A program made the translations under genes and the position numbers. A DNA stretch of 64,000 nucleotides from Bryobacterales bacterium (GTDB lineage Bacteria > Acidobacteriota > Terriglobia > Bryobacterales > UBA6623): contig OY729427.2 in assembly GCA_963422375.2 (NCBI GenBank), positions 512,001 through 576,000 on the forward strand, read 5' to 3'. Shown here piece after piece: positions 10,660 to 51,649 of the stretch (position 1 is its first letter; each line of letters starts with the position of its first letter). The notes beneath the pieces were generated by a model. That model made no database searches. It saw only the letters and a program-made list of their open reading frames with translations, and was not told the origin of the DNA.

Positions 10660-12139
10660 GGGAATTATATATCTGAGTGCCGAGGCAACCGATTTTGCAA
10701 ATTATCAGTCCATAAATTAATTTCATATTTCTTCCGGAGATCTGTTGATATTTGGTGGAGTGTTTTGATAGAATATTTCCAATATATGAGGTCGTCTATG
10801 AAGCAGAAAAGTCCCGGTAAATGGTTTCGTGAAGGCCTCACTCTGATTGACGTGATCGCCATGTTCCGCGATGACGAATCCGCGGAAAAGTGGTCGCCTC
10901 CATGCGCTGGCCCGACGGTCCGGTATGCCCCCACTGCCGCGGCTGCGGCAAGCGCTTTTCCGTGCGCACCGGCAGCGTGACGGCCGACACCGAGCTCGGC
11001 TACCGCACCCGGGCCGTCGCCCTGTTCCTGCTGACCACCGGCATCAAGGGCGTCTCGAGCATGAAGCTGCACCGCGACCCGGGCGTCAGCCGGAAGTCGC
11101 CCTGGCACCTGGCGCACCGCATCCGCGCGTGCCGGGAGCGGGATCGGGGCCTGTTCGCCGGCCCGGTGGAGGTCGACGAGACCTGCGTCGGCGGCAAGGA
11201 GCGCAACCAGCACGAGAGCAAGAAGGCCCGCGCCGGGCGCGGGCCCGTCGGCAAGACGCCCGTAGCGGGGGCGCGGGACCGCGCCACGAACGCAGCGGCC
11301 GCGCGGCCGCTGCCGGGCACCGCCAAGGGCGACCTGCAGGGCTTCGTGCGCGGCCGGGTCGCGCCGGGGGCGCAGGTCCGCTCCGACGAGGCGGCGGCCT
11401 GCGCCGGCATGGAGCAGTTCCCGCACGAAGCCGTCAAGCACTCCGGCGGCGAGTACGTGCGCGGGGCGGCGCATACGCGCATACGAACGGCATCGAGTCG
11501 TTTTGGTCCCTGTTCAAGCGCGGCCTGTACGGAACCTATCACCGGATGAGCGTCCGTCATCCGGGTCGCTACCTCACGCAGTTCGCGGGACGGTGCAACG
11601 ACCGCGACTGCGACACGGCGGAACAACGGCGGAACAGATGCGGCGCATGGCGCGGGGCCTGGTCGGCCGGACGCTGACCTACCGGCAGCTGACCGGCAAG
11701 GCCGCAGTCGCGGCCCGAGCGGCGCCCTCCGCGCTGAGCGCCGCAGCCCGCTGCCGACGCACTCTTCACGCTCGATGCGCTTCACGCTCGGTGCGAGGGG
11801 CGCGCCGGATCTGGAATCCCCCGGCGCGACCCGAGTCCGGCCCGGACCGTCCATGCAGGCCGTCGAGCGCCGGGGATCCGCTGTCTTCGGCCCTCGCAGG
11901 GCACGCAATCGACTTGCAAGGGGTGCCCTCCACCGCAAACCGGATTCCACCGGGGCATGCGAGGGGGACTCTCTAATCCGTGCCTCGTCAATTCCGCCGG
12001 CAGGTTCGATTCAGATACGATCCCACCTTTCCGTGCCTGCCGCGGCCGCATTCGAATGACCCGAGCCAGACGCCGACCTCCCTGCTCACAGCAGTTCTCG
12101 TCGGACATGGCGTTGTCGGCACTCAGATATATAATTCCC
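10660..12139 (+). mobile_element. IS1595-family insertion sequence, copy 1 (defective)
   Basis: Perfect 24-bp TIR GGGAATTATATATCTGAGTGCCGA at 10660-10683 and 12116-12139. Flanks CTTTCATT/TTAAGAAG do not match, so no TSD. Confidence 0.93.
10798..11700 (+). pseudogene. IS1595 transposase pseudogene
   Basis: RWPDGPVCPHC, KGVSSMKLHRD, VEVDET, SDE and HTNGIESFWSLFKRG motifs. Frameshifts near 10893, 11469-11484 and 11615-11636. 3' end approximate. Confidence 0.9.
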
Positions 12140-13906
12140 TTAAGAAGGGAGTTCGTCATCTTCGTGTCGGCCACGCCTTCCCGGATGACTGGCGAGTTGA
12201 CCACGTCGGGCAATTGCATGGCGAACCGCACGCGACCGACCGTTGACCTCAGCGGGAATGTGCCCTGGGTGCCCGTGGCGACCGCCACCGCGTCGTGGAT
12301 CTCCTCGGCGCTCAGCCGCCGCACGGGGTGGCGCGCGAAGAAGCGCTCGTGGCCGGGACTCCAAGCGCCATCGTAGGACGCGGACAGCTGGTAGGTCCGC
12401 GAGCTCACGATCTCGCACATGAGCGTCTTGAGATAGAAGCGCCCGGCAATCAAGACGTCGGCTAGGTGCTCGAGCAATGCGAGATGGGACGGCTGGATGG
12501 TCCACGGAGACTCGGGCGGGGCCGCCGGGTCGAGGCGCTTGGGATCGAAGCCATGCTCGGGCTCGACTAGACCACGCGAGAAGAAGGTCCGCCAGACGCG
12601 GTTGACGAGATTGCGAGCGAACTGGCGATCGGCCGTCAGCAGACGTGCCAAGGCCGCCATGGGCCGCTCGCCGGGCCGCGGCGCGCCGCCGCCGAATGGG
12701 TACCGCGGGCTGACCCGGCGAGAGCCGCCGTTGTCGGACCTGTGCCTCTTCGGGCGGTTTCCGTGGGATGTGTCGGCATAATACGCGCCAGACTCGCGAA
12801 TCGACCCGCGTTCTCCGGGCCGCACGACGTTCACGTGCCAGAACGGTGCTTTCGGGCCGCCGGGCCGCCCGGATGGGCTCGGAAGTCTATACGGTGACGG
12901 ATAGATCTCGAGCTGCTGGAAGAATGCCGCCAAGCCCCAGCCGTCGGCCCGACGCGCATCCCTGCCCCACAGGCTTACGGAATCGAGACGGCCCGCTCCG
13001 TCATGGCACAGGATGCAATCCACGACCGCGAGGCCTAGTAGGTCCCGCGCGACGCGCGACGAGGGACGCCAGGCGGTCGAAGGTGTCTTGCACGGGCCCG
13101 CCCGGGTGATAGCCGCCCACTAAGTAGTTGGCCGCCCGCGGCCGTACTCGCTCGTCAGCAAGGAAGACCTGGTATGTGGCGAAGTCGCGGAATGGCGAAG
13201 CTCGCGATGTCGGCGTGGGCCAGTTGCGACCGTCGTTGGTGCCGGAGGCAGTCAGCAGGTTCCTGACAAGGCGGTCAAAAGCCGTGTTGCGGCGTATCGC
13301 GGCGCGAATGTACAAGTGCAAGGAGTCGCGCCCAGCGAAGCGGTTGATCAGCGTCGTCCTCTCCGTGTTGGCAAGCAGGTCGCCGACGAACAGGGTCCAG
13401 CGGTCCGCCCACTGCGGGCTGGCAAGGAGGCGCTCGACGACACGCTCGCGCTTGTCGGAGGACGCATCTTGCAGAAACGAAGTCACTTCGGCGACTGTCG
13501 GAATGCGCCCGGTAAGGTCTAGGCTGACTCGGCGCAGGAACCGTGCGTCGTTGCAGGCGGCGGCAGGCGGTATCCCCTTGCGCTCGAGCTCGGCGAACAC
13601 TAAATCGTCGATCGAGTTCACTTGGGCAGGGCCGCCGGACGAAGCTGAGGCACGGGCCGAGGCCGCGCGAGCCGGCGCCGGAGAGTGCCGCGGACTCGGC
13701 AGCCGGGAGGAAACGGTCGCGTTCAGTTCCGCCTGCCGGCGCGCATCTTGAAGCAGCGGGCCGAGCCCCGCACCTAGGAAGTGCCGGCCGGCGTCGCCCG
13801 AATAGGTGCATTGCGCGTGTTCCAGCCCGTCGCTGGCGCTGGGGGCCGGGGATCCAGCCAAAGCAACCCAGAGCGAGGCTAGAAGCAGTACGGAAGGCCC
13901 AAGCAT
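12140..13906 (-). pseudogene. DUF1549/DUF1553 protein, frameshifted and truncated by IS1595
   Basis: FLRRVSLDLTGRIPT, DCILCHDG, FARNLVNRVW and RRLSAEEIHDA motifs. A 7-bp tandem duplication at 13047-13060 shifts the frame; the C-terminus runs into the IS TIR. Confidence 0.85.
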
Positions 13907-14082
13907 GGACCCCAAACTCGGCTGCCGGGCCGACCCCCGGCACAAGGAGGCATTGGCCCGAGGCCCAATCGATCATAACACCCGTTTATCGGCGGCAATC
14001 GAGTTTCTCGTACGCGAGATTCCTAACCTACCCTCCAACGCGAGACGATCCCTGGTTGACGGGCTGGAGGTGACGAGTGTCC

Positions 14083-14210
14083 CAGCGAGTGCGGCCGCTG
14101 CTCGCAACCGGCAAGGCGCAACTGCGGACTCGGTCGGTGTGCCACCGCACCGATGACGCGATCCGGGGCCATTTGTTCTGATCGGTTCTCGCCTCGGATT
14201 TTCCGAAGTC
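14083..14210 (+). pseudogene. IS1634-like transposase C-terminal remnant
   Basis: Reads TGKAQLRTRSVCHRTDDAIRGHLF*SVLA, resembling the IS1634 motif K..L.TRP.YH....IRGH.FCSFLA. Confidence 0.5.
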
Positions 14211-14769
14211 GACGCGCGGAGCGAGTCCCGAGCCTGTCGAAAGTCACTATTTCACAAGCAGTATCCGGGATCGGTGGAACAGAGTCCGTCTAATTTGTCC
14301 TGTCGAGGTTCTGAGGCGGGTCCACTCGGCTGGAGCCCTCATCCCGGCCTTCGAACTGTCACTGCCGGGCCGAGAGTCCGTGCCGGGGCTGTTGGGCGGG
14401 GCATCACGCGCCTCAGCGGCGGCGCGACCGGTCCGTGCTGATCCTTGCCGGTCCCGCATGCGGCTGGTGCGCTTCTCCCGGCTCGTCGGAGCCATCCCAT
14501 ATTGGGACATCGCTAGGGAGACGCCACGGGATGTCTGAACGTTGGTGCCCAAGCGGGACTTGGGCCGCTTGCTCGAGCCGCTGGCGGAACGACGCGCCGC
14601 GCGCCTGGCGCTGCGCAGGCGGGCGTGAAGGACGGCAGTCCTCTCTATCTGTCCATTCGCCACTTTGCATTGCCGCTCCTCTTGAACCGCCTGATCGAAG
14701 ATCTGCTAACCGCTTGCTTTCGGTCCTGCCAACAACCTCTGCTAGCAGGGAAGAATCGCCTCAACAATA

Positions 14770-14980
14770 TCGCCCCTGAACTTGCTTCATCAATCCCCCA
14801 ATTGTGGGGTCTGCTTGTCTCCATATTTTAGATTCGATTTTCGAAATTCTGCTTCTATTCCTCGATCTGGCCGATCTTGGCGTCTGAGAGGACACGATGA
14901 ATCGTCCCGATCTGTTGTCGCTCGTCACGTGTGGGACAATTGAACGGAACTTCAAAGTTGATCGCCTTCTGCGTCGTGCA
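14770..14980 (-). pseudogene. possible type I R-M specificity subunit (HsdS) C-terminal remnant
   Basis: Lower-GC patch reading CPTRDERQQIG...DAKIGQIEE*KQ, then GLMKQ in another frame; reminiscent of the HsdS P...EQ..I...D.KI...GLMQ helix. Confidence 0.25.
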
Positions 14981-15230
14981 GCGTCACGCTTCCGTCGAAG
15001 GGCCGAGGGCCAACCTGATGCGAGACCGGCAATCGACGGAGCTCCGGCAACGTAGATCCTTCGTCGCGCTACCCCGTCCAGCCCTGCGTAGTCGGGCTTG
15101 CCGACCCGGCCAGAGACCCGAGGGCTCGGAAATGGCGACGGCCGCACGGCCGTCCGATGGCGCTCCGGTCGATCCCGAACTCGCCTGATTCGCGCAACCG
15201 ACCAATCATCCGGCTGGCCACGCCGCCGCC

Positions 15231-19603: not shown

Positions 19604-19607
19604 GGCG

Positions 19608-20525: not shown

Positions 20526-20609
20526 CGCTCCAGCGTACCAACGGAGCGAGGGAGCGCCCGCCGGGCGCGCGTGCGGCAGGCATGCGTGCTAGCCTGAGTC
20601 CAGTCGGCG

Positions 20610-21500: not shown

Positions 21501-21502
21501 GC

Positions 21503-24549: not shown

Positions 24550-24633
24550 GGAACTCCCTCAAGTATGGCCTACCGTCCCGCGTAGGGCCGCGGTCCGCAC
24601 GCGCGGCTCCCGCGGTGATATCCTTGGCGCTCC

Positions 24634-26537: not shown

Positions 26538-26920
26538 GGGGCGTCGGAATCCAAGTGCAGCCTACCAGCGTAGCGACGCGGCGCGCGAGTCCGTAGCAGC
26601 CGCGACTCTGCACGGCGCGGGACCAGCCGGAGCCGGGGCAGCCGCCGTGCTGCGCACGGCTCGCAATTCCGCAGGAGCGTAGCACGAAGCGCGTTCGGAC
26701 GCTCCTTGGGCCCGTACGGGCTCCCGGGGCGGATGGGCATCCGCGCAACTCGCACAATCGCATGGATGGAACGGTCGTTCGGCAGGTCGGCAAGCACGGC
26801 CGGAATCGAACATCCGGTGAAGGAATGTGTTCGGCAGGTCGGCCCGACGAATCGAAGGGCTCCAACGGTCTCCGTTGAAGCGCACGCTCCGGGCTCCGGT
26901 CCCTCGGGCGATCGCACCAA

Positions 26921-27903
26921 GAGGGTGCTGAGAAGGGTATCGACGGCAGTCTGGCGCAGGCAGGCACTTGTACTCTTGCTAGCGGAATTTGTGAGCTAGG
27001 GTATATGCCCCATGTCCTGGACTCGCTGCTGAGCGCCTTCCGCGAGACGGACGCCTGCCTGCCCGACCGGCGCGACGGTCGCAACAAGCGCTACGAGGTC
27101 AGCGACGCCGCCGGTTGCGCCCCGGCCTGCTTCTTCACCCAGTGCGAGTCGTTCCTCGCGTTCCAGCGGCGCACGGAGCGGGACGGCTCCCGCTCCAACT
27201 GCCGGACCCTGTTCGGCGCGGGCCGCATCCCCTGCGACAACCGGATCCGCAACTTGCTCGACGACCTCGACCCGGCCGCGCTCGACCCGCTGTTCCGGCC
27301 GTGGCCTCGAAACCGTGGCCGCGCAGGGCGCGCTCGCGCCCTTCCAGCGCCTCGACGGGCGCCTGCCGGCGGCTCCGGACGGCGTCCGGTTCCACCGCTC
27401 CGACACGGTGCATTGCCCGCAGTGCTCGGTGCGGCGCGTCGGTAGCGAGCGCCGACCGCATCACTTCCGCACCATGGTCGCGGCCACCGCGGTGGCCGAG
27501 GGCCACGCTGCGCCCGCAGCAGGACGCGGCCGCGACCCGCGCCGACATGAGCGAGGACGCGCGCAAGCGGGACTGCGAGCGCAACGCCGCCAAGCGCCGG
27601 CTCGCCGCTCACGGCGCCTGGCTGCAGGCCTGCCGCCCCGTCCTGCCGGGCGACGCCTTGTATTGCTGCCAGCCGGTCTGCGAGGCCGCCGCGGCGGCCG
27701 GCATGGACTACATCCGGGTATGCAAGCCCGGATCCCGCAAGCGCTTGTACGAGGTGCTGGAGAGCCGGCGGGCGAGCGGCGCGGTGCGCTCGACCGGCTG
27801 GCTGCCGCGGCGCGGGAAGGGCAAGCGGTCCGAGCGGCACCGTTTCCGCTGGACGGTCGCGGTGCCCCTGCGCCAGGGCCGCGACGCCCTGCGGGGCACT
27901 TGG
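26921..27903 (+). mobile_element. truncated ISNCY-type element, copy A (transposase pseudogene from 27005)
   Basis: Near-identical to about 49950-50974. LPDRR.GRNKRY, FFTQCESFLAFQR, IPCDNRIRNLLD and DCERNAAKR motifs. Frameshift near 27304, internal deletion near 27509, no TIRs. Confidence 0.85.
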
Positions 27904-28207
27904 GTCGTGCAGGGCTTCGCGCGGACGCGGTTTCGCTCGCCAGCTAGAGCCACTTGGGGAGGCAAGCTTCCACCGTGAGCGAGATCGGAGAACCTGGCTG
28001 ATCTCACGCTGCGATGGAACTCCTCCCGCCTGCCCCAGACTCACTCGGCTGCCCTGAGCTGGCCGCTGTTCAGTAGGCGCCCAAGCATCTAGGCGTGGTC
28101 GCAAGTCAGCTTACGGATAGCGCACGACGACTCCGCCTTACGCCCGGCACGCGAGCAGCGGCCAGGTCGGGTGCGTCGGGCAACTCTTCCCGGCACTGCG
28201 CCGGCAT

Positions 28208-36087: not shown

Positions 36088-38844
36088 ATGCAATTCCGTC
36101 GAGAGGAGGCCAGCAGCTGGCGGGACGACGTGCCCGGAGCCCGGTGGTTCAAGGCCGACCTTCACATTCACACCATTGACGACCTTCCGGGAGGCAGGGC
36201 GAAAGTTCCGGCCGAACTGTCAGTGAGCCCCCGCAGCGAGAGCGGAATCAAGCGGTACGCCCGACTTTTCCTGCAGCGCTTAGTCGCTCAGGGAGTCACG
36301 GTGGCCGGTCTGACACCTCATTCCCCGAAGCTGGACGAGACACCCGATAGCAGTGTGGTCTGGGCTATCGTCAATGCATGGAACGCTGCGACGGACGCCG
36401 ACGGCGTCCCGTTCCGAGACAAGATTTACGCGGTATTCCCCGGCTTCGAACCGTCGCTTAGCGACGGTTCGACTGGACTTCATCTCCTCTTCCTGTTCGA
36501 TCCCGAGATCGGTCGCGAGCGGTACTTGAGGGCATTCGACCTAGTTATGGGAGGCGTGTCGCCTTGGCGCGACAAATCATTGAAGATTTCCAACCGAAGC
36601 GCCCGAAAAGCATTCAGTTCGTTGCGAGAGTTCAAAGCGCGTGAGCAATCCGGCTACGAGACGAGCGAGTGGGACTACGCTGTAGTCGCTCGTCATGTCA
36701 ATTCGCCAAAGGGCTTGCTCAGGGCCCAGAAATCACAGATTCTCGAGCTCTTTGAACACAAGGAAGTGTGCGCCTTCGAGCTCGGCGATAATCAACAACC
36801 GAAACGTCAAATCGACGCACGCCCTTGGTTGCTCGCAGGAATGCAAAAGCATCGCCAAGCGTTCATCCATAGCAGTGACGCGTATTCTCTAGACGAGATC
36901 GGAGTGCGCTTCACTTGGGTCAAGCTGGCTTGCCCGCGTATCGAAGCGCTACGCCAGGCCTTCGTCGCTAGCGATTCCCGCTTGCGCATTCCACCCAACT
37001 GGGACACGAAGTGCGCAACAGATCCCGCCGTAGATCCCTCGCTCCACCGTCATCCTTGGCTCAAGCAAGCAGTCATCCGCAACAGAGCTTCGTTCTTCAG
37101 CGCCCCAAGGAACGCCGCCGAAGAGACGCGGTTCCAATTCAGCCCCGACCTGACATGCGTGATCGGGGGCAGCATGACGGGCAAGAGCACTTTGCTGGAT
37201 GGTCTGAGAACACATTGCGGTGCCTCCCCGCCGACCGACCCAACTATCTCGCGGCATGTTTCGGATAGGGGACACTCCCGTTTCGGGGCAAGGTCTCCGG
37301 ATATCGACCTCGACATTCAGGGTGGCCTGCCCGCAGCGCCCGTTGACGAGCGGTGGCCTGCGCAATTCTTCAGCCAGAACGAGCTCCAGGCTCTGTCGCA
37401 GAACGCGATCGCGATCAACGGAATTCTCGGCAGTTTGGTTCCCAAAGAGGCGGAGATTATCGAGAAGATAGAGGTCGAAATGAGCGATCTGGACGACGAA
37501 CTAGGCGGGTTGGCAACGAGAGTGGACAAGCTCGAAAAGGACCTCGCTGTCGCGGAACAGGCCTGCCGAAAAGCAGCCCAAGCAACCGAGTCGCTTGCCC
37601 AGTATTCCGCAGCTGGAGTCGAGGACCTTCATCAAGCGGCCAAGTATCTTCGACGCTGGACTGACACGAATCAGAGCGCCCATTCGATTCGGGCGGCATT
37701 AACCGAGACGAGAGATGACCTGCGTGGGCTCGACATTCCAAGGCCCGCCTCAAATGGATCGGAAGAGCTGGCAGAGCAAGATGCCATCTCCACTGAATCC
37801 TCTGTTGCGCTGCTACGGGCACGGGTCGTGAAAAGACTCGATTCGATCGAGCGTGAGATTCTCGAATGGCTCGATCTCATCGACGAGGTGATTCGATCTC
37901 TGTCGGCCCATCAGGAGAATCTGCGTGCCACAGTGGAACAGCGCCTTGCAGAAAGCGGGCTTACCGCGGCGTCAATCATGGTAACCCGTGAGCTCGGCAA
38001 GCAGGCGTCGCTCCTCGCCAACTATTCCGCAGTCCTCAAGCAGACTCGGCGTGCAGCAACGGAGCACGGTAACAGATTCTTGCGGTTGCTGGAGCGTCGT
38101 TCGGCGCTTGTCAACGACCATCGAGAGGCATTCCGGCGGGTCACAGCGGGAATCGAGGGACGATTTGCTGGGATCATTCGCGTGCGTCGCGTGGACCACG
38201 GCATGTCCGAGTTACTCGAGCGTTTCTTGACGGGCTTGCGGTCCAGGGGAGTCACGAGATGGTGGAACCTACTAGCGGTCGACGAAAGGCCATCGCCCGA
38301 GAAACTCGTCCAATGCCTCGTGGACGGATGCCTTGATCGTGTCGGGATGACCGCGACGGTGCAAGAGAGCTTCCGAGATGCGCTGACAAAGTCGAAAAGG
38401 CGCGAGCTGAAGACTATCAGGTGCCCTGATAGGTATGTTGTCGAGTTGCAGATGGATTCCGGCAACTACCGTTCGCTAGACGAGCTCTCTGGAGGGCAGA
38501 GGGTCGGTGTGCTGCTGTCCCTTCTGTTGCAAACCGTCGATGACCGTCCGCTGGTGATTGATCAGCCGGAGGACGAGCTCGACAACCGCTTCTTGTCTGA
38601 TACGATTCTTCCCGCGCTCAAGCGCCTCAAGGGGCGGCGCCAAGTAATCGTTGCAACTCACAACGCCAACATTGTGGTGAACGGCGACGCCGACATGGTG
38701 ATCGAGCTCGAGGCAACCGCCGACCGAGGCTGGGTGTCGACCTCGGGCACGATCGAGGATCCGGCTGTACGGAACGCGATCGTCCGGACGGTCGATGGCG
38801 GTGCGGATGCGTTTCGCCTGCGACAGAGGAAATACGGATTCTAA
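36088..38844 (+). CDS. PHP-domain + ABC/SMC-like ATPase fusion (Ppl/TrlF-like), candidate anti-phage protein
   Basis: DLHIHT, HLLFLF and SSDAY (PHP); Walker A GGSMTGKST, coiled coil, LSGGQ, IDQPEDELDN, ATHNAN; lower GC than flanks. Confidence 0.85.
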   Translation: MQFRREEASSWRDDVPGARWFKADLHIHTIDDLPGGRAKVPAELSVSPRSESGIKRYARLFLQRLVAQGVTVAGLTPHSPKLDETPDSSVVWAIVNAWNAATDADGVPFRDKIYAVFPGFEPSLSDGSTGLHLLFLFDPEIGRERYLRAFDLVMGGVSPWRDKSLKISNRSARKAFSSLREFKAREQSGYETSEWDYAVVARHVNSPKGLLRAQKSQILELFEHKEVCAFELGDNQQPKRQIDARPWLLAGMQKHRQAFIHSSDAYSLDEIGVRFTWVKLACPRIEALRQAFVASDSRLRIPPNWDTKCATDPAVDPSLHRHPWLKQAVIRNRASFFSAPRNAAEETRFQFSPDLTCVIGGSMTGKSTLLDGLRTHCGASPPTDPTISRHVSDRGHSRFGARSPDIDLDIQGGLPAAPVDERWPAQFFSQNELQALSQNAIAINGILGSLVPKEAEIIEKIEVEMSDLDDELGGLATRVDKLEKDLAVAEQACRKAAQATESLAQYSAAGVEDLHQAAKYLRRWTDTNQSAHSIRAALTETRDDLRGLDIPRPASNGSEELAEQDAISTESSVALLRARVVKRLDSIEREILEWLDLIDEVIRSLSAHQENLRATVEQRLAESGLTAASIMVTRELGKQASLLANYSAVLKQTRRAATEHGNRFLRLLERRSALVNDHREAFRRVTAGIEGRFAGIIRVRRVDHGMSELLERFLTGLRSRGVTRWWNLLAVDERPSPEKLVQCLVDGCLDRVGMTATVQESFRDALTKSKRRELKTIRCPDRYVVELQMDSGNYRSLDELSGGQRVGVLLSLLLQTVDDRPLVIDQPEDELDNRFLSDTILPALKRLKGRRQVIVATHNANIVVNGDADMVIELEATADRGWVSTSGTIEDPAVRNAIVRTVDGGADAFRLRQRKYGF

Positions 38845-38853
38845 GGCAAGGGC

Positions 38854-40056
38854 ATGGAATGGATCAAAATCCTGCACAGAATTCGCGAGGGTGAGGGCGA
38901 CCGAACCGAGTTCAAGCGCGGCCTTGGCAGGGACCTCAGCAGTGTCGGCAAGGCGATTTGCGCATTCGCGAATTCCGATGGCGGTGTGCTGATTCTAGGC
39001 ATCTCCGACTCCGGGGAGATTATTGGAGTCACCGAGAACTCCGAGCGCGTCCAAGAACGGCTAACATCGTTTCTGCAGTCCGGACTCAGCGCTCCGGTTC
39101 CTGCGCGGTGCGGTCGGCACGATGCACAGGGAGGTTGGGTACATTGGATCGATGTCCGTCGCGAGCGCGGTTTGGAGCCGCTCCGCCACAACGGGAAGGT
39201 GTGGGTCCGCCGGGCGCGGAGTTCCGTGGAACCGAGCCCTAGCGAGCTTCAGGAACTATACAACGCCTTCGGCTTCGTTCTCACCGAGAATCAGGTGATT
39301 CGCAGAGCCGGTCCCGACGCTATCGACATCGATCTCTTTCGCTCCTTCCAGCGAGACCGGGGGATTGACATTGATTCACCCCCGCAAGTTGCATTGGAAT
39401 CGGACCTGCTGAATCAACAGGTGCTGTCGGACGATGACGGTCAACTATGCCCCACGCTCTACGGCCTGCTGCTATTCGGACGGGACCCTCAGGGCCATCC
39501 GCACACAACCAACTTTTTCGTGAGATGCGCCTGCTACCGAGGAGACGACCAGGCTTCAAGCGTGCTCAGCGTCGCCGACGCAAGGGCGACCGTGGTCGAT
39601 CAAGTGAGGCGGTCAGTTGGCTGGTTTCGGAGCCTCGGAGGTAGCGAGCGCTACCCAAGCCCGTTTCGGGAAGATCGACCGCTGCTGCCGGAACGCGCTC
39701 TCCGCGAGGCGATCGTCAATGCCGTAATCCACAGGGACTACGCCGTTACCGGCTCGACAGTGCTACTCGAGGTGTTCCGGCAGCGAGTCGTGATCACTAG
39801 TCCGGGAGTCTTGCCGAACCACATGACGGTCGAACGAGCGAGGGGAGGCGGCGGTCCGCGGTCTCGGAATGAACTCGTGGCAAACGCAATGGTAGTTCGG
39901 CGATTGATGGAGCAGCGAGGTCGAGGATGGCCGCTCATGCGACGCGCTATGTTCGAATTCAACGGTACGGAGCCGGAGCTGGAGAACGACACCGACAATC
40001 GGCTGGTGCGGGTGACGTTCCGACTGGGGAAGGAGGCCGAGACGAGCGCCCCTTGA
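38854..40056 (+). CDS. Schlafen/AlbA_2 domain + HATPase_c_4 (RecG-C-like) protein
   Basis: EGDRTEFKR, ICAFANSDGGVLILGISDSGEIIG; ALREAIVNAVIHRDY, SPG.LP, SRNELVA, MEQRGRG. Confidence 0.88.
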   Translation: MEWIKILHRIREGEGDRTEFKRGLGRDLSSVGKAICAFANSDGGVLILGISDSGEIIGVTENSERVQERLTSFLQSGLSAPVPARCGRHDAQGGWVHWIDVRRERGLEPLRHNGKVWVRRARSSVEPSPSELQELYNAFGFVLTENQVIRRAGPDAIDIDLFRSFQRDRGIDIDSPPQVALESDLLNQQVLSDDDGQLCPTLYGLLLFGRDPQGHPHTTNFFVRCACYRGDDQASSVLSVADARATVVDQVRRSVGWFRSLGGSERYPSPFREDRPLLPERALREAIVNAVIHRDYAVTGSTVLLEVFRQRVVITSPGVLPNHMTVERARGGGGPRSRNELVANAMVVRRLMEQRGRGWPLMRRAMFEFNGTEPELENDTDNRLVRVTFRLGKEAETSAP

Positions 40057-40845
40057 TCGGGGTGGGAAGCCCGCGCGGCGGTCTCCGAAGTCTCTGGCCG
40101 TGGCGACACAGTAGATTCCCTTTCGATACTCGCTCGCATCACGAGGGTCTCGGTCAGCGGCAGCGGATGGCACCAACGGTACGGGCGGGTCGCGACCAAG
40201 GGCGGCAGGCTGGCTCCCAGCGCGTGTCAACCCCGTTCCCGGACGTCCTCGCCCTCGGGCCGCACGAGGAATCGCTCGGCGCCGGCCGATCCAAGTCTCA
40301 CGCGACGCGCACTGGAACACGCTCGGTCCGCCAGCCCGCCACCGCCACGCGGCGGGGCCCGCTGACTGCGGGAGGCCCGGGTAGAGTCCAGCGGCCATGG
40401 GCAGTCAAGCCCCAGACGCTTCTCGGGCTGCTCGATGCGCGGGATGCCCTCCTCTAAGCGAGACTCCAAGGCTTCCCGGGCGGGAATCACACAGATTGCA
40501 GAACTGACTGCCCCGGATATGGCTATACACGTTTCCCGCGAAGGTGATCATGTCACCGCCGAGCTGCGGACACGGTGTCCCTTGACAATCGGACAGCGCT
40601 TTCTCTCGATGATTCGCCAAAGGCGAGCCCCCAAGGCAAGACGAATCGGACGGGCGGCCTAGCCCGGATAATTCATGAGCAGCCCGGAGGGCCATAGTCC
40701 GGTCCCTCCGCCCGGGCCGTGAGGGCCCCGGTCCAGCGCGATCCTCACTCCTACGAGTGCCCTGCGATCCCCGGCGGCAGCCCCGGCCCGGTCCGATTGA
40801 GATCCAAGTTTATATATTGAAGTGGTTTTCATCCGGTAGTTTATA

Positions 40846-42368
40846 ATGAATACATGGTCGCATCCGCAGGCTCCCAAGGCGTTCTGTTCCGCAATCCGCG
40901 CCGTCGCCGTCCGCTTCGATCACGAGCGCAGCAGCTCCGACGGCGGCGCTGTCCCGGTCGAGGCCGCCGACCGCGCTCCCGGCCTCACCGCGGCCTTCGC
41001 CGGCTGCCTGCGCGACCGGCGCCAGCCCTCCGAGGTGCTCCACTCCCTCGCGGACATGCTCCGCCAGCGCATCCACGGCCTCGCCTGCGGCTAGGAGGAC
41101 TGCAACGACGCCGGGCGCCTCGGCGGCGACCCCGTGTTCAAGCTGCCGCTCGGGCGCGACCCCTGGCAGGGCCGCGACCTGCCGTCCCGGCCCACCCTGT
41201 CGCGCTTCGAGAACGCCGTCACCGCGGACGCGCCGAGCGCGCTGTCCGCGGTTCTCGCCCGCTGCGTCGTCCGGCGCCGGCACGAGCGGCGCCCCGAGAC
41301 CAGGATCGTCGAGCTGGACTTCGACCCGACCTGCGAGCCGACGCACGAGGGCCGGCAGCTGGCGCTGTTCAACGGCTTCTGCGACACGCATTGCTACTTG
41401 CCTTGCTACTTGCCGCTGGTGGGCGTGGTGCGCTTCGACGACGAGCGCGAGCGGCATCTCGTGGCGGCGCTGCTGCGCTCGGGCACGGCCGCCGCCGCGG
41501 AGGGCTTGCTGCCGCTGCTGGAGCGCTTGCTGCCGCTGCTGCGGGAATTCTTCCCGCGGGCGACGCTGCGCCTGCGCCTGGACGCGGGCTTCCAAGGGGA
41601 CGAGCTGCCGGCCTATGGCGAGCGCGAGGGCCTGGAGTACGTGGCGTGCCGCAGAAGAACGCGGTGCCGGAGCGGCGCGCGGCCCCGTTGCGGGCGGCCG
41701 TCGAGGCCCGGCGCGCGCGCGGCGGCACCCCGGGCACGGACCCCGGCGGGGCCGCGGCGGCCGCGGGGGACCCGCCGTCCCGGCTGGAGCAGTTGCGGGC
41801 GAAGTACGCGCGGCTGGGAGCCGGCACGCAAGGGGGCCGGCCGGTCGCGGAGGACGCGTGCAGCGGCCCGGGCCCGCTGCACGGGCAGTTCGTCTACCGG
41901 GCGGGCCGCCGGTCGCGGGCGCGGCGGGTGATCGTCAAGGCGGACGTGAGCGAGTTTCCCGGGCGCGCCCCGAAGTGGAACCCGCGCTACGCGGTGACCA
42001 ACGCGGGCGGCAGCCCGCAGCGCCTCTACGAGCGGATCCACTGCCTGCGCGGAGACGTGGAGAACCGCGTCAAGGAGCTCAAGCAAGGGATGCGGATGGA
42101 CCGCGCCAACTGCTCGAGCTTCGCGGCGAACCGGTTCCGCGTGCCGCTCGCGGCGGCGGCCTGCGCGATCATGCAGGAACTGCGCTGGCAGGCACGGGAC
42201 ACGCCGCTGCGGAAGCGCCGGGTGGACGGGTTGCGCCTCGGCCTGCTGAAGCCGGGGGCGCGGGTCGCGGCCACGGCGCAGCGGATCGTGCCGCACGTGC
42301 CGCGGACGGCACCGTTCCGGGACGCCTGGGTGGTGGTGGCGCGGGGCTTGGGGGCCGTGCCGAGATGA
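40846..42368 (+). pseudogene. IS1380 transposase pseudogene
   Basis: SSDGG, RQRI.GLACG*EDCND, PTLSRFEN, LDFDPT, RLDAGF and RGDVENRVKELK motifs; in-frame TAG at 41092-41094; frameshifts near 40885 and 41648. Confidence 0.92.
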
Positions 42369-42524
42369 CGCCGGGCCGGGTCAATCCGGAGAGTGTCGGC
42401 AGGCGCCGGGCGTCGCCGGGGGAAACCGTGCCTGCCCTCCGGGCGGGTGCTGCCGAGGAGGTGTCCGCGGCTCGCCCGCCGCTCGCGAGACGCCCCGCAA
42501 GCCCCGCCCGCAGGCGTTTCGGAA

Positions 42525-43912
42525 GGGAATTATATATCTGAGTGCCGACGACGCCATATCCGGCTAGAACTGCTCTGATTGGGGACATCGGCGTCTAGCT
42601 CGGGTCTCTCATGTGCGGCCGAGCTCGGCACTGAAAGGTCGGTTCGTATCTGAATCGCACCTGCAAGCGGATTTCGCGGCGCACGGACTAGAGAGACCGC
42701 CTCGGATGCCCCGGTGGAACCCGGATTGCCGTGGAGAGGCTCCCCTTCCAGGACGGCTGCATCTATGAATCGTCCGGGCTGGACACCGGTCGCGGCGCGG
42801 GATTCCGGATCCGGAGCGCCCTTCGCACCGAGCGTCAAGAGAGGCCGCAGCGAACCGGCTAGGCCGTGCTCGGGCCGCGACCGCGGCCTTGCCGACCAGT
42901 TGCCGGTAGGTCAGCGTCCGGCCGACCAGGCCCCGCGCCGCATCCGTTCCGCCGTGTCGCAGTTGCGGGCGTTGCGCCGTCCCGCGAACTCCGTGAGGTA
43001 GCGGCCCGAATGGCGGACGCTCATCCGGTGATAGGTTCCGTAGAGGCCGCGCTTCAACAGGGACCGGAACGACTCGATGCCGTTCGTACGCGCTGTCCCG
43101 CGCACGTACTCGCCGCCGGAGTGCTTGACGCCCTCGTGCGCGAACTCCGCCATGCCGGCGCAGGCCGCCGCCTCGTCGGAGCGGACCTGCGCGCCCGGCG
43201 CGACCCGGCCGCGCACGAAGCCCTGCAGGTCGCCCTCGGTCGTGCCCGGCAGCGGCCGGGCGGCCGCTGCGTTCGTGGCGCGGTCCCGCGCGCCCGCCAC
43301 GGGGGTCTTGCCGGCCGGCCCGCGCCCGGCGCGGGCCTTCTTGCTCTCGTGCTTGTTGCGCTCCTTGCCGCCGACGTACGTCTCGTCCGCTTCCACCGGG
43401 CCGACGAACAGGTCCCGGTCCCGCTCCCGGCACGCGCGGATGCGGTGCGCCAGGTGCCGGGCCGACTTCCGGCTGATGCCCGGGTCGCGGTGCAGCTTCA
43501 TGCCGGAGACGCCCTTGAGGCCGGTGGTCAGCAGGAACAGGGCCATGGCCCGGACGCGGTAGCCGAGCTTGGTGTCGGCCATCACGCTGCCGGCGCGCAC
43601 GGAAAAGCGCTTGCCGCAACCGCGGCAGCGGGGGCATGCCGGACCGTCCGGCCAGCGCACGGAGGCGAACCACTCTTCCGCGGATTCGTCATCGGGGAAC
43701 ATGGCGATCACTTCGATCAAGGTGATGCCTTTACGAAACCACTTCCCGGGACCCTTCTGCTTCGACTTCTTCAACGAAGACCTCCTATATTGGAACTATT
43801 CTATCAAGAAACTCCACAGACTGTCAACAGATATCCGGAAGACATATCAAATTCCTTTATGGATTGATAATTTGCCAAATCGGTTGCCTCGGCACTCAGA
43901 TATATAATTCCC
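42525..43912 (-). mobile_element. IS1595-family insertion sequence, copy 2 (defective)
   Basis: Same 24-bp TIRs as copy 1; exact 8-bp TSD TTTCGGAA at 42517-42524 and 43913-43920. Confidence 0.95.
42890..43774 (-). pseudogene. IS1595 transposase, degenerate
   Basis: Mostly open ORF (VEADETYVGG, TNGIESF) with a collapsed zinc ribbon, many Trp/Leu/Tyr losses and a 3' frameshift. Confidence 0.88.
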
Positions 43913-44007
43913 TTTCGGAAGCAGCTTTGGCGGCCATCGAGGGCCCAGAAACTGGATCCATGGGCCTGCGCCGCATTCGTGAATAATGCGGGCTAGCCCT
44001 CAGCCGG

Positions 44008-45011
44008 TTGCTCCTGATACTGGCCTTCGACCGGGAGGGCTGGAGCGCGGACCCGACCGCTCGGAATATAGCCGTGGCAACGAAGGGCAAGGGCCCTCGC
44101 GAAGAGATCTGGCAGGAGACCGACTTCCGCGACATTGATCCGTATTCCGAAAATCTGAGGTTGAATGTCGAGCGCGGGCGGCAAGCTTACAGGCGGGACT
44201 TCAGTTTCTCGGCCTCCACGCCTGCCAGGTTCCAAGCGGACACAATTGACCTGCGCGTCGTCGCCCGAACACGAGAAGCGGAATTCCGTCAAGGCAATCA
44301 GGTCATTCGCCATCGCGACTAGAGTCTCCGATACTTGTACCGAGACGCCGTGACACAGATCCAAGGAGTCGATGTCAAACTCGATCACCGATTGAAGTTG
44401 GGCTATGTCATGGATGTCGGAGACGAGGTTCCGAGCGAGATCGAGCAGATGCGAGCCGACTTCACTCTCTTGCAGACCGATGACCCAATCACCGGATCCT
44501 TGAGCGCCTACGGAGCGATAGTAGTCGGCACACGGGCCTACGCCGTGCGTCGGGACCTGATCAGCTACAACGAAGATCTGCTCGAGTACGTTCGCCAAAG
44601 GGCCAACTTGATTGTTCTCTATCAGACGCAGGAGCTCATTCCTAAAAAGTTGGCCCCTTCCCAGCCGATCTTCCGCGGAGAGCCGACGAAGTTTTGGAAG
44701 AGGACTCTCTGGTGCAAATCTTGAATCCTGAACGTGCGGTGTTTCAACGGCCAATCAAGATCATGGCGGCCGATTTCGACAGCTGCGTGGAGCAGAGAGG
44801 CTCCAATTGTTTCTCTAGTTGGGACGACGCTTACATTCCCCTAGTCGAGACGCAAGATCAGGGACAGGAACCACAAAGAGGGGGGTGGCTGACCGCGCGC
44901 TACGGACAGGGGCACTATACATACTTCGCCAACGCCGTTCATCGCCAGTTGCCGTACGGAGTGCCGGGAGCGTATCGGATCTTTGCCAACGTCCTGTCGC
45001 TTGGGCGCTGA
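44008..45011 (+). pseudogene. C-terminal remnant of a large PIG-L/LmbE-type protein
   Basis: GYVMDVGDEVP, AIVVGTRAYAVRRDL, VEQRG, ARYGQGHYTYF and RQLPYGVPGAYRIFAN motifs; stop at 44320-44322, frameshift near 44690; no N-terminus. Confidence 0.75.
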
Positions 45012-45279
45012 CCCGAGCAGCCAAGCCGCCCGAGTATTCCGCGTCATCTTCTCCGCCAACCTGCTGACGGCGCAGGGGTGTCCGACAGACGTGTTGCGGA
45101 CAACCGTCTCGATGTCCCGACATGCGTGATGAGACGGTAACCGACCCGACGGAACGCGACGCTGGTTGCGGAATCAGGGCCTTGCGCGAGCCTTTGCGCG
45201 AGCCTGCTCGCGACTCTCTGGGCGGGGAAGGGGTCTGGAACGCATCGAGCGAGGCGCGACTAATCGTACCGCCTGCGCC

Positions 45280-46917: not shown

Positions 46918-46954
46918 GGGCCTCATCGTATCGCGAGGGTGACGTCGCGGCCTG

Positions 46955-48775
46955 CTATTCGGGCCGTGTCAAGCCGTACGGACGGAAGGCCTCAAACAGG
47001 CGGCCGGCACCGTCCAGACCAACGGCGCGCACGGACAGGGTGGCCGGATACGAACCCGTCAGGGAGCTCGGCACGCTGAAGCGACCTGATTGCGAGGTGC
47101 CGAGCACGCGAGCGCCGCGGCCCGAGCCCGCGACCTCGGCCGTCCAGAGCCAAAGCATGCGGCGGGCGGCGATGGTGTTCCTCGTCAGCGTGGCATTGAA
47201 ATCATGCTCCCTTCCGGCCTGGATCTCACCCGCGTCGGGCAGCTGAATCTCGAATGGGAGGTTCGCGGGCGAGTATTCGATCTCGCGAATCCGCGGCTTG
47301 GTCGACTCTAGGATGAACGACTTGTTGAAGCCCTGCTTCCTGCCCTCGCGCCGGAGGTACAGCACCCAGTCGCTGCTCTCGTCGGGAGTCCGGGAGGTGT
47401 AGCGGTCGCCCTTGAACTTCCTCTTCTGGTCCAGCCATGAACCGTCGGCGGGGTTGTACCAGCTCACCGAGTACTCCTGCTTCGGCATGACCATCTCGAT
47501 GATGCCCGGCTTCTCCGCGTAGACGATGTATTCGATGCCGACCGCTCTTTCCGCCCGGTAGGGGACGCGCTGCAACGCCAGTCCCGACCCGCCGACCACC
47601 CGGTAGTGCGGCTGCAGGTCGAAGTAACGCGACTGCGCGAAGAAACCCCATAGCAACGCAGCTTGGTCGGCACCGGGCGAGTCCGGTTCGACGCCGGTGT
47701 CCGCAAGGGTGACGTAGTGGCCGCGGGTCGCGGCGGTCCATGCTTGGCGGCGAGTGCCGTCGGCGCTCGCACCGGCCCCGACGCCGGTGCTGACGAAGGG
47801 TGCCGGGCGGGTCTCGAACTCTATCGAAGCCAGCGCCGGGTCGACGCGGTTCTGCGTGATGTAGTCCTGCCAGCCGTCCTCGGCTAGAGGGGCCGAGGTA
47901 ACGGTCGCGCCGGTCGACTTGGGGTGAGCGTACGGGTCGTACTTGTCCAATGATCCCGCCAGCTGCCTCGCGAGCCTCCCGCCGGCCTCGTGGCTCTCCC
48001 ACTCGAGCAAGGCCTGCCACGTGACGCTGTAGGCCGCGAAGCGCGCGCAGACGTAGCGGACGTAGTGATCGCGCTGCCGGAGCCGGGGGAAGAGGCGCTC
48101 GAGCTCCGCGCCAGAACTTGCGAGAACCAAGTCCGTGACGATGCCGAGGCCGCTTAGATACGCCACCCTCCGGTCCAATTCCCGGAAGTGCTCGACGAGA
48201 GGGTCTTCGGGGCCCTTAAACACCTCGGCCGCTCGCTCGGGAGGGCCGAGCACGAGCGCGCGCAGATGAGTGAATCCCTGCTCGGCGCGACGGTCGACCA
48301 AGGCCGTGAATCGGTCCCACGGAAGCCCTGCGAGATCCAAGACGCTGGCGCCGAGCCAGTAGTGCGGACTGTTGGTCAGGGGGTACTTGAAGTGCCGGAC
48401 GTTGAATACCTCGATGAAGCCCGGAGTCTCCGGGGCCACAGCCCGAAAGCTCCCTGTCTTTCTGTCGAGCGACTTGATGCCCGAGATGAAGCGGAAGTCC
48501 CAGCGTCCTTCGTAATCCGGGGAGAAACGTAGCACGAACTGTCTGCCGCCGTCCCAATAGGCCGACATGACCTTGGTGCGACCGCCTTTCGGCGACCTGA
48601 ACTCCGCACGCAGTGTCACGCCGGAGTACGGATTCCAATCCTCCGCGACCTCGTCGGCGGGGATCACGACGCGGATCTCGCACGGGCTGTAGACCGCGAC
48701 GGAGTCGCAGGCTTCAAACGCCTGGCCAGCCGCCAAGACCGGCAACATCAACGCTAGAGCCGCAAGCAACCGCAT
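46955..48775 (-). CDS. exported DUF5060/DUF4038-like (apiosidase-like) glycoside hydrolase protein
   Basis: Signal peptide; NPY...F.SP.G....AYWDGG...LRFSP..EG.W, RYVCARFAAY, DPYAHP, WYNPADG and DWVLYL motifs. Confidence 0.75.
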   Translation of the reverse strand: MRLLAALALMLPVLAAGQAFEACDSVAVYSPCEIRVVIPADEVAEDWNPYSGVTLRAEFRSPKGGRTKVMSAYWDGGRQFVLRFSPDYEGRWDFRFISGIKSLDRKTGSFRAVAPETPGFIEVFNVRHFKYPLTNSPHYWLGASVLDLAGLPWDRFTALVDRRAEQGFTHLRALVLGPPERAAEVFKGPEDPLVEHFRELDRRVAYLSGLGIVTDLVLASSGAELERLFPRLRQRDHYVRYVCARFAAYSVTWQALLEWESHEAGGRLARQLAGSLDKYDPYAHPKSTGATVTSAPLAEDGWQDYITQNRVDPALASIEFETRPAPFVSTGVGAGASADGTRRQAWTAATRGHYVTLADTGVEPDSPGADQAALLWGFFAQSRYFDLQPHYRVVGGSGLALQRVPYRAERAVGIEYIVYAEKPGIIEMVMPKQEYSVSWYNPADGSWLDQKRKFKGDRYTSRTPDESSDWVLYLRREGRKQGFNKSFILESTKPRIREIEYSPANLPFEIQLPDAGEIQAGREHDFNATLTRNTIAARRMLWLWTAEVAGSGRGARVLGTSQSGRFSVPSSLTGSYPATLSVRAVGLDGAGRLFEAFRPYGLTRPE

Positions 48776-49917
48776 CTACCAGTGAGCATACTCGCACTAG
48801 GCACGCTGTCACAACGTAGCCTGCTGTCTCGCGGGGGCGTGGCGTGGTCGAGCCGATCGAGTCGCGTCTCGGCTGCGCCTGCGGACCACGCCCCCCTTGC
48901 GGAAGCACCCGCCGCTGTTGAAGGTCGCCTTGATTACGGCCAGGACAGGGGTGCGATGGAAGAACCCCGTGGCAAGTGCTTGCTCGACGGTGCGAGCAGA
49001 GCCGTCGCAATCCCGCCGTGACCGCGCCACGGGAGCCAACCGCCCCCTCCCGGAGTCTCACCGATCAAGTCCGGCTGTCCCTGCAACTGACCCCTTGGAG
49101 GTCGGAGTCGAGTCTCTCGGCGGTCTCATTGAAGGCCTTCGGGCCGTCGCGCCGCGGGGAGTCTTGTACGTGCGGGCAGGGAGCGAGGCGTGCAGCCCGT
49201 GTCGCGCGGGATCATTGGGAGAGCGGGTCAGTCCCCTGACCCGGTGCATCGAGAATCATCCGGGATGCGAGCGGCACGCGCATTGTGAAGGCAGCGTACT
49301 CCACAGATAAGTGTCGGAACTGGCCTCAACAGAGGGCGCAAACGGGAAGAACGACTCATGCGCTCCTCAGTACCGGCACCCGGCGAGCAGCTCGAGGTGT
49401 CGGAGGCCCGTCGGCGTGGGCGCCGCAGGCGGACCGCGCGCCGAGCAGCACCCCGGCGCTGCGCTAGTCCGCTTGACGTCGGCACTCCCTTGGTCACCGC
49501 CGGCGGTGGTAGTCCAGTCCCCAGGAGAGAGACCGAAGGAGTAGCCGCCGCGCTGGAGAAGAATTGCTCCAAGCGGTGTTTCAATGCCGAAGGTACATCC
49601 GCAAGAGAGTACCGTTATTGTCGAGACAGACACTAGTCGTCCACCGTACACCAGAATTCCTTGTCGCGGCTCGCATCTTGCGAGTTTATCAAGCCACCTC
49701 GGCTATCAATATACATCATTTTGAGCCATGGATCTCGCGGTTTATTGCCTTGATATACCGGTGGAGATTTTCCCCGAACTCCATCCACATATTAGGACAC
49801 TGTTCCTCCGATACAGTACACCATATCAGCGTGTATTGTCGTCCTAATAGTACTCCTATAGAATCCTAATAATTGCCTATATTACAACACATATGATTCA
49901 ATATTTGGCGTCATGGA

Positions 49918-51649
49918 CAGCGATTCTCAATTTGGGCATTTGGGGATTTCCAGAGTGTCTGAGAAAGGTGTCGAGGGCAGTCTGGCACTTGACTTTTCCT
50001 TGCGGTCCTTGCGGAATTTGTGAGCTAGGGTGAATGCCCCGTGTCCTGGACTCGCTGCCGAGCGCCTTCCGCGAGACGGCCGCCGGCCTGCCCGACCGGC
50101 GCGAGGGTCGCAGCAACAAGCGCTACGAGGTCAGCGACGCCGCCGGTTGCGCCCTGGTGCGCCCCGGCCTGCTTCTGCACCCGGTGCGAGTCGTTGCTCG
50201 CGTTCCAGCGGCGCATGGAGCGGGACGGCTCCCGCTGCAACTGCCGGACCCTGTTGGGCGCGGGCCGCATCCCCTGCGACAACCGGATCCGCAACTTGCT
50301 CGACGACCTCGACCCGGCCGCGTTCGACCCGCTGTTCCGGCCGTGCCTCGAAACCGTGGCCGCGCAGGGCGCGCTCGAGCCCTTCCAGCGCCTCGACGAG
50401 CGCCTGCCGGCGGCTCCGGACGGCGTCCGGTTCCACCGCTCCGACAGGGTGCATGGCCCGCAGTGCTCGGTGCGGCGCGTCGGCAGCGAGCGCCGGCCGC
50501 ATCACTTCCACGCCATGGCCGTCGGCCACCGCGGTGGCCGACGGCCACGCCACCGTCCTGCCGCTGATGCCCGAGTTCGCGTGCCCGCAGCAGGACCCGG
50601 CCGCGACCCGCGCCGACACGAGCGAGGACGAGCGCAAGCGGGACTGCGAGCGCAACGCCGCCAAGCGCTGGCTCGCCGCTCGCGGCGCCTGGCTGCAGGC
50701 CTGCCGCCCCGTCCTGCCGGGCGACGACCTGCACTGCTGCCAGCCGGTCTGCGAGGCCGCCGCGGCGGCCGGCATGGACTGCATCCGGGTAGGCAAGCCC
50801 GGATCCCGCAAGGGATTGTACGAGGTGCCGGAGAGCCGGCAGGCGAGCGGCGCGGCGCGCTCCACCGGCTGGCTGCCGCGGCGCGGGAAGGGCAAGCGGT
50901 CCGAGCGGCACCGTTTCCGCCGGACGGCCGCGGCGCCCCTGCGCCAGGGCCGCGACGCCCTGCGGGGCACTTGGCTCGAGTACGCCGTGGAGCGCGACGG
51001 CAAGCGCACCTGCGCCAGCAGCTTCTTCACCGGTCTCGCGGTCACCGCGGACAACGCGGAGCGGATCGCGCGGGCCGGCCGGGCGCGCTGGAAGATCGAG
51101 AACGAGGGCTGCAACTGCCTGGCGCGGCACGGCCGCAACTGCAAGCGCAACTTCGGGCACGGCAAGGAAGGGCCGGCCAACGTGCCGGCCGTGCCGAACC
51201 CGTTCGCCTTCGCGCTCCACGCCGTGGTGCAGTGCGTCTGCGCGCTGCGGCAGCAGTGCCGGCGCCAGCCGGTCACGCGCCGCGCCCTGTTCCAGGAGCT
51301 GCAGGTCGCGCTGCGCTGGTTCCGCTTCCCGGACCGGCCGGCGCTGCTGGCGGCGGTGCGCGACGGACGCGCGCCTCCGGGCTGCCAGGCGGCCGGGCAG
51401 CCGGGGCCTGGACTCCGCGCAGTTTCGTGCCGGCAGCGGCCGGCCGTCAAAGCCGGCTACCGCCGGAGTGCGTCCGGTCGCGGGCTCGGCACTCCGCGGA
51501 CCCGCGACGCGGGCCGCGCCACGGCCCTGCCCGCCGTCCGACGCTCCCGCGGGGCGGCCTCGGGAGCGCAACCTCTCGGTCAACTCATTCACCTCATCCT
51601 CCGAAACAACCTTCACGCACCCCCTTGACGGCCAAATTTAGAACCGCTG
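49918..51649 (+). mobile_element. ISNCY-type insertion sequence, copy B (full length, defective; transposase pseudogene about 50034-51430)
   Basis: Imperfect TIR CAGCGATTCTCAATTTGG / CAGCGGTTCTAAATTTGG; DDE-type motif GRARWKIENE...NFGHG; frameshifts near 50158 and 50520; no convincing TSD. Confidence 0.85.

Follow-up and report, generated by a model that had tools for sequence, protein, structure and literature searches.

Are the mobile elements of a bacterial genome being driven toward G and C, family by family, and if so, by what process? The question is raised by a 64,000-nt stretch from a Bryobacterales bacterium (GCA_963422375.2, contig OY729427.2, positions 512,001-576,000; hereafter the window), in which five larger insertion sequence (IS) transposase copies carry proline, arginine, cysteine or histidine in place of conserved leucine, tryptophan, glutamine or tyrosine. 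The first-pass annotation had located these copies correctly (two of IS1595, one of IS1380 and two of a DDE_Tnp_1-type element). It had proposed a directional A:T to G:C process that acts on repeats across IS families, similar to fungal repeat-induced point mutation (RIP) and caused either by adenine deamination or by GC-biased repair of heteroduplexes between IS copies. Family-wide substitution spectra and a single-copy pseudogene that decays AT-ward support a directional, repeat-linked process, and of the two proposed causes it is the second that finds support: strong, context-dependent GC-biased gene conversion (gBGC) among dispersed IS copies is the probable explanation.

The genome (G000; 6.0 Mb in three contigs, 67% GC, 96% complete, one 16S gene) has a repeated share of 19%; most of its long repeat pairs share 88-96% identity and few exceed 98%. 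A housekeeping protein finds its best, though distant, matches in Acidobacteriota / Terriglobia (34-48% identity), which suggests that class. Counting copies that hold at least 30% of an element, the five window copies are drawn from families of 26-107 copies, namely IS1595 (107 copies genome-wide), the DDE_Tnp_1-type element (58) and IS1380 (26). Further families are one that we take to be a second IS1595-like family (100), IS30 (25), IS5/IS1182-like (21), true ISNCY (17) and ISAzo13 (9). The DDE_Tnp_1-type element had been labelled ISNCY, a label that we could not confirm; its intact homologues give only weak IS4 / DDE_Tnp_1 matches.

Within the window, IS1595 copy A (10660..12140, + strand) is frameshifted and carries 10 of 20 shared derived alleles at conserved codons, while copy B (42524..43912, - strand) carries 11 of 17. 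The truncated DDE_Tnp_1-type copy (26920..27907, + strand) has 10 of 27 shared derived alleles and the full-length copy (49918..51652, + strand) 29 of 44, including four CCG codons at 51173-51202 (GPANVPAVPNPFAF), where Leu is found in 8-9 homologues at the first three aligned positions and predominates at the fourth, as had been expected. The IS1380 copy (40659..42525, + strand) is also frameshifted and is unlike its homologues at 41 of 187 conserved codons; many of the changes are Leu>Pro, Gln>Arg, Tyr>His/Cys and Trp>Arg. Four of the six IS1380 examples originally cited are clear (homologues with Leu 42/42, Leu 42/44, Gln 44/44, and Gln 27/29 plus Leu 24/28), whereas RIHGL involves Phe>His, which is not a one-step change, and the LLKPGA site is weakly conserved (Leu 15/24). 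Transitions between paired copies are indeed frequent at TpR/YpA, but transversions make up a larger share than had been implied: the DDE_Tnp_1-type pair differs by 24 transitions (17 at TpR/YpA), 9 A/C and 9 C/G changes, and the IS1595 pair by 45 transitions (22 at TpR/YpA), 7 A/C and 19 C/G changes. The transposase cores are GC-richer than the host (0.73-0.77 vs 0.67 for the genome), as was also noted at the outset, and long unique intergenic DNA has a GC content of 0.62-0.65.

For the family-wide spectra, changes were polarised with outside homologues at codons whose residue occurs in at least 80% of homologues and is still encoded by some copy. This gave 117 codons in 94 IS1595 copies, 216 in 48 DDE_Tnp_1-type copies and about 180 in 25 IS1380 copies, the last polarised with 44 of 47 homologue proteins after the 3 from the genome itself were removed. 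The majority consensus was rejected as an ancestor because it carries derived alleles itself. Nonsynonymous T>C changes (both strands) have a mean derived frequency of 0.078 in IS1595, 0.112 in the DDE_Tnp_1-type element and 0.124 in IS1380, compared with 0.002, 0.016 and 0.005, respectively, for C>T; conserved codons with no surviving ancestral allele (5, 28 and 24) are left out of these means. Among segregating alleles, 50/96 T>C exceed a frequency of 10% vs 4/54 C>T (Fisher p 1.4e-8), and three of these four C>T alleles (at 0.85-0.94) are probably mis-polarised; for IS1380 the counts are 25/43 and 0/15. Many Leu>Pro, Trp>Arg, Gln>Arg and Tyr>Cys alleles are present in the majority of copies. 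Per 1000 codon-copies of IS1595 and the DDE_Tnp_1-type element, there are 466 Gln>Arg, 342 Tyr>Cys, 294 Trp>Arg and 183 Leu>Pro changes, while the reverse changes number 0 for Cys>Tyr, 0.5 for Arg>Trp and 10 for Pro>Leu. GC at second codon positions reaches 0.56 in the consensus vs 0.42-0.47 in nine relatives, and among the listed copies with at least 10 scored sites, all but one, a short and divergent fragment, carry derived alleles. Synonymous and non-coding IS sites drift in the same direction.

The changes depend strongly on neighboring bases. T>C is found in 20.8% of codon-copies in the context S-T-R (C or G 5' and a purine 3') vs 3.0% elsewhere, and is strongest with G two bases downstream (CTGG 42/118, GTGG 24/73, GTAG 11/37; CTAG 2/21). 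In seven families, 580 shared variants reach at least 12%, of which 302 are T/C, 149 A/C, 118 C/G and 11 A/T, so that transversions (278/580) form a large class with a context bias of their own: the hot context of A>C is S-A-A, and polarised C/G variants are mostly G>C following C or G on one strand. The T>C, A>C and G>C classes are all expected if the base opposite a G is replaced by C.

How the alleles are distributed among copies distinguishes copying from independent mutation. Singletons are even in direction (T>C 221/88,815 and C>T 549/207,877 site-copies, or 2.5 vs 2.6 per 1000) and nearly even across contexts, in a set that includes some leftover ancestral alleles. Shared W/S (A or T vs G or C) variants in six families show linkage that decays over about 10-60 bp, with n*r2 falling from 10.7 at 1-3 bp through 5.7, 3.1, 2.2, 1.6, 1.3 and 1.3 to 1.2 beyond 300 bp (computed on main groups, with divergent copies excluded). 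Both coupling and repulsion are seen, the latter at 6-16 bp. Multi-base haplotypes occur without intermediates (in 15/14 and 12/8 copies, and a 4-base block in 9/5 copies), and adjacent derived alleles are often never found together in one copy. W/S variants are also scarcer near the element ends (13/258 sites within 50 bp vs 185/1179 in the interior). The true ISNCY family retains tree-like linkage and contains one identical pair. No correlation was found between the derived and private loads per copy. Since linkage also depends on copy number, its length cannot fix the conversion tract length. Alleles shared between copies and private changes lacking direction argue against RIP-like hypermutation arising anew in each copy. 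Adenine deamination fits no better, given nearly unbiased singletons, transversions at about half of the shared variants and the sharing of alleles as short haplotypes.

A single-copy pseudogene in the window (44194..45011, + strand), the 3' remnant of a ~920-aa gene that is intact in congeners, serves as an internal control. Compared with 28 genus orthologues, it has 37 changes at 387 conserved sites, against a background of about 5 in each intact genome. The 37 divide into 18 C>T, 6 C>A, 5 C>G, 4 T>C, 2 T>G and 2 T>A. Its decay had been described as proceeding in mixed directions; it is instead AT-ward (24/217 AT-ward vs 6/170 GC-ward, p 0.007), with GC3 of 0.64-0.71 vs 0.75. Although it is more diverged than the IS copies, only 1/54 of its S-T-R sites has undergone T>C. 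An earlier comparison with 16 distant homologues, two of them at loci from genomes marked unpublished and used there only, agrees on the AT-ward direction. In three younger broken genes, 4/173, 2/94 and 0/64 S-T-R sites have changed, and radical changes in 23 broken genes, found via 638 G003 proteins and too young for power, are 5 GC-ward vs 7 AT-ward. The conserved-column test on broken regions with paralogues covered 5 regions and 166 codons only. The 3-copy IS66 is affected much more weakly, with 0.017 at S-T-R and fixed one-step differences that are GC-ward in 5 cases, AT-ward in 3 and neutral in 1. Among large families, load does not scale with copy number.

Nine relatives were examined for one or two families each, and among them the strong T>C drive is specific to G000. 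IS1595 consensus proteins are intact in G015 (13 copies) and in G044, G045 and G046 (16 copies), DDE_Tnp_1-type subfamilies in G021, G003 and G008 consist of near-identical copies, and IS66 shows no GC drive in G017 (13 copies) or G019 (9 of 10). IS66 in G007 (40 of 55 copies) likewise lacks a T>C drive; it has radical T>G alleles (Phe>Cys 31/40, Val>Gly 21/40), with C>T and C>A alleles at similar frequencies, and is possibly a weaker, MutY-type version of the drive. The 55 copies of this family (L391-L430) are 3% diverged, with linkage partly decaying. The IS1595 element shared by G044, G045 and G046 (L153-L169) is 96-99% identical across the three species, indicating recent horizontal spread; its shared differences from the majority are 21 T>G vs 13 C>T (unpolarised).

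The process that probably underlies these patterns would run as follows. Point mutations would arise in any of tens of copies at ordinary, non-GC-biased rates, and ectopic recombination between IS copies would then expose them as heteroduplex mismatches. Repair would proceed over short tracts, mostly independent of one another, and would retain the strand bearing G (T:G, A:G, G:G to C:G); it would be most efficient where C or G precedes the replaced base and a purine follows it (CTGG, GTGG, GTAG, GAAG). With repair of this kind, G/C alleles would sweep through the family regardless of their effect on the protein, A/T alleles would remain private, and the consensus would degrade. Transposase function would presumably be lost along the way, and this inactivation, central to the original proposal, may be a by-product. 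Toy simulations that combined the AT-biased spectrum of the pseudogene with variants of conversion (three seeds per setting in the main set) gave frequencies, GC and linkage similar to those observed under biased patch conversion, but not under unbiased or no conversion. Biased runs yielded hot-site frequencies of 0.17-0.23 (observed 0.23) and diversity of 0.025-0.036 (observed 0.036-0.044), and reproduced the low C>T.

The genome encodes mutS, mutL, two MutS2-like genes, vsr, a mutY-like gene, nth, an alkA-like gene, two UDG genes and dinB, as well as recA, ruvB, uvrD and polA (by motif); ruvC, radA, recR and dnaE2 gave no match in motif look-ups, a weak test. A suspected loss of mutSL is not borne out, as mutS and mutL are present as open frames of 878 and 631 aa, which points to no mismatch-repair gene loss. 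The vsr frame (L263:8399-8836, equivalent to C2:2578398-2578835, with dinB three genes away) is intact, scores 154 bits against TIGR00632 (cut-off 98), matches solved Vsr chains and has matches in 30/31 genus genomes. No C5 methyltransferase (PF00145) lies near it at C2:2578 kb; matches occur elsewhere, several of them in prophages. The three HhH-GPD genes correspond to Nth, MutY and AlkA-like models, and a Mig-type glycosylase was not found among them. Nor did the genome, at its 96% completeness, yield a match to NucS or Piwi, and a search of PF00383, the one deaminase family covered, returned three genes (TadA, RibD and a dCMP/dCTP-deaminase-like protein) and no extra deaminase. A protein with kinase-like and dCMP/dCTP deaminase parts (L319:1417-2418) is encoded two genes from tadA and scores under the cut-off of the anti-phage dCTP deaminase model. 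As a tentative guess, the orphan Vsr could act on T:G and MutY on A:G and A:C. It seems rather unlikely to us that this lineage has made short-patch mismatch repair (Vsr, kept across the genus, with MutY) into a homology-triggered drive against all high-copy mobile elements, wrecking them at once; the accompanying idea, equally speculative, is that such a drive would be a functional bacterial counterpart of RIP, working by biased copying and in the opposite direction, and tolerated given the single rRNA operon and few essential repeats.

Several observations weigh against GC-biased conversion as set out here, or limit it. Untouched hot-context sites number 48/105 (46%), while biased-conversion runs leave 74-80% untouched, and an extra supply of mutations beyond conversion may exist; the bias and the hot contexts were moreover entered into the simulations by hand. 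The strong control is a single pseudogene, and two of the young broken genes have T>C at or above C>T (9 vs 9 and 9 vs 7). The lower density of variants at element ends could partly stem from constraint on the termini, divergent IS1595 copies carry derived alleles at 0.45, nearly the 0.49 of the main group, and IS1595 with 94 copies has a lower load than IS1380 with 25. Single-copy genes are themselves GC-shifted (GC3 0.878 vs 0.785 in the nearest relative, G003), and residual T at four-fold sites is inversely related to IS hotness across 34 contexts in both genomes (Spearman -0.65, p 3e-5). Weak genome-wide action of the repair bias, or codon-context selection, may lie behind this shift, but the AT-ward decay of the old pseudogene is left unexplained if the bias acts genome-wide. 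The presence of vsr and a mutY-like gene in nearly all congeners means that they do not account for a lineage-specific T>C drive, and nothing in the machinery inventory is unique to G000; more ectopic recombination, a higher Vsr level or longer family residence are candidate causes of its extreme state.

Repeat-linked de novo mutagenesis (error-prone or mismatch repair-escaping recombination synthesis, e.g., by DinB) combined with unbiased conversion would account for repeat-dependence, the end effect and linkage. The dinB gene is present, the 46% of untouched hot sites lies near the 15-28% in runs of this kind, and the cited passages of a preprint on Mycobacterium tuberculosis paralogues give a similar reading of a T>C excess (PMC13061034). 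We nevertheless consider it unlikely, as it over-predicts both hot singletons and frequent C>T: hot-context singletons should be enriched 3.6-10.8-fold, against 1.3 in the data, and a frequency above 10% should be reached by 34-52% of segregating C>T alleles, where 4/54 reach it. A RIP-like defence, in which an adenine deaminase or similar enzyme edits repeats copy by copy, would match the direction, context preference and repeat-dependence, but it is very unlikely and already largely refuted by allele sharing. The many transversions with their own context bias and the shared multi-base haplotypes speak against it, targeted mutation without conversion leaves 0% of hot sites untouched in simulation, the PF00383 genes appear housekeeping-like, Piwi has no match and 0/28 CRISPR spacers match an IS.

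A genome-wide mutation bias that becomes visible in unconstrained DNA would explain the high GC3 and the same ranking of contexts at four-fold sites. Given the AT-ward window pseudogene with its 1/54 hot sites changed despite greater divergence, the few changes in younger broken genes, the lower GC of unique intergenic DNA and the intact mutS and mutL, this too is very improbable. That the enriched changes are both damaging and shared might point to host selection for dead transposases or to inheritance from already mutated master copies. Nonsense alleles are rare, however (Trp>stop 4/684 and Gln>stop 2/528 codon-copies), the drift extends to synonymous and non-coding sites, and master-copy descent alone gives distance-independent linkage where decay is observed; we regard both variants as barely credible. 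An assembly or consensus artefact of collapsed repeats has a negligible chance of being the cause. Raw-read runs X7 and X8 yielded no reads on the window, but contigs from run X2, which may be the source sample, match unique DNA without differences and break up over the IS into more than 1000 short pieces at about 25-100x single-copy depth, with alternative letters at multiples of that depth. The low-depth run X1, from another study, also carries the family alleles (a small share at depth 1-6, with 10 listed differences in unique DNA unpolarised).

Other features of the locus and genome are as follows. IS1595 copy B sits within the end of the IS1380 copy, pushing off its last 84 bases (43913..43996, + strand). 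IS copies genome-wide (e.g., 10660-12140) have about 3-4 indels per kb, many of them 7-13 bp tandem duplications and deletions between short direct repeats, and some are common to 10-19 copies. A low-GC island in the window (36088-40056; 0.59-0.61) encodes an AAA_21/SMC-type ATPase and a Schlafen AlbA_2 protein and is probably defence-related. An HK97-type prophage of ~42 kb is present in three copies (C2:1307800-1350200 and two at contig ends) that are 99.9% identical in the structural half and 95-98% in the rest; GC3 is mostly 0.91-0.99, and a lower-GC cassette contains a C5 methyltransferase. This prophage (GC3 0.93-0.99) was rejected as support for a GC drive, as 2/4 related phage loci also have GC3 of 0.99 and a single-copy prophage region is equally high. 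In a CRISPR array at C1:378-380 kb, 12/28 spacers match prophage regions of the same genome at 94-100%; on how the prophages have drifted, the spacers are uninformative (3 GC-ward vs 4 AT-ward). Unique DNA is depleted in GTGCAC (0.19 of expectation) and CCAGG (0.66), hinting at long-resident methylation or restriction sites.

RIP is a repeat-dependent, directional and context-biased decay of transposons, in which C>T changes arise independently in each copy. The IS families of G000 resemble it in their dependence on repetition, directionality and context bias, but differ in that the direction is opposite, transversions are included and alleles are copied between copies; the two defining features of RIP, the C>T direction and independent de novo changes in each copy, are thus lacking. 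Localised conversion driven by Vsr and MutY is said to have been described in classical work, and gene conversion among dead Wolbachia IS copies has reportedly been seen. In the openly accessible literature searched, we found no study describing IS families degraded by GC-directed conversion. The role of gBGC in bacterial GC content and the enzymes behind it are an open question, argued mostly from correlations. Tens of copies in one genome provide an allele-frequency spectrum, a mismatch ranking, base context and an AT-ward control, which makes the candidate enzymes directly testable. Such conversion would also offer a way for IS families to die out, one that grows with their own success, and it calls for caution in treating the majority consensus of such families as ancestral.

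The cited passages on IS families of Wolbachia (PMC3205602) and Sodalis (PMC3914690) describe many old copies and mention gene conversion as a possible homogeniser; the copies there are near-identical or old and diverged, and a directional GC drive does not figure in these passages. As described in the cited passages, E. coli Vsr corrects T:G within CTWGG and preserves Dcm sites (PMC2715241), MutY excises A paired with G, 8-oxoG or C, and the preference order of Mig is T:G > G:G > A:G (PMC2714593). A correction of T:G to C:G in a sequence context would be shared with these enzymes, and the mismatch classes of Mig are the three seen in the IS copies; unlike the E. coli gene, vsr in G000 has no adjacent methyltransferase, and the context is broader (S-T-R-G). 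The nearest precedent in the literature searched, going by the passages cited, is the preprint on M. tuberculosis paralogues (PMC13061034), where C>T is depleted and T>C enriched, with a median tract of 101 bp and a few IS events included. T>C enrichment with short conversion tracts is common to both systems, but the shift there is modest, concerns mostly functional antigen genes and is attributed to reduced NucS repair, whereas G000 has no NucS match, possesses MutSL and Vsr, and has damaging alleles that have swept through whole families. In its cited part, the study of Lassalle et al. 2015 (PMC4450053), whose main text does not contain the words 'insertion sequence', 'Vsr' or 'mutY', drew on allelic recombination and the GC content of genes to infer bacterial gBGC. 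The features of gBGC found in G000 are G/C alleles at higher frequency, recombination among the affected sequences and an underlying mutation that is not GC-biased (even singletons and an AT-ward pseudogene, the latter one strong locus only). As in that study, G/C is favored at fixation rather than mutation, in a recombination-linked manner that overrides protein function; here, the conversion would be ectopic, among dispersed IS copies within one genome, with its base context resolved, and powerful enough to bring radical changes into the consensus of a family.

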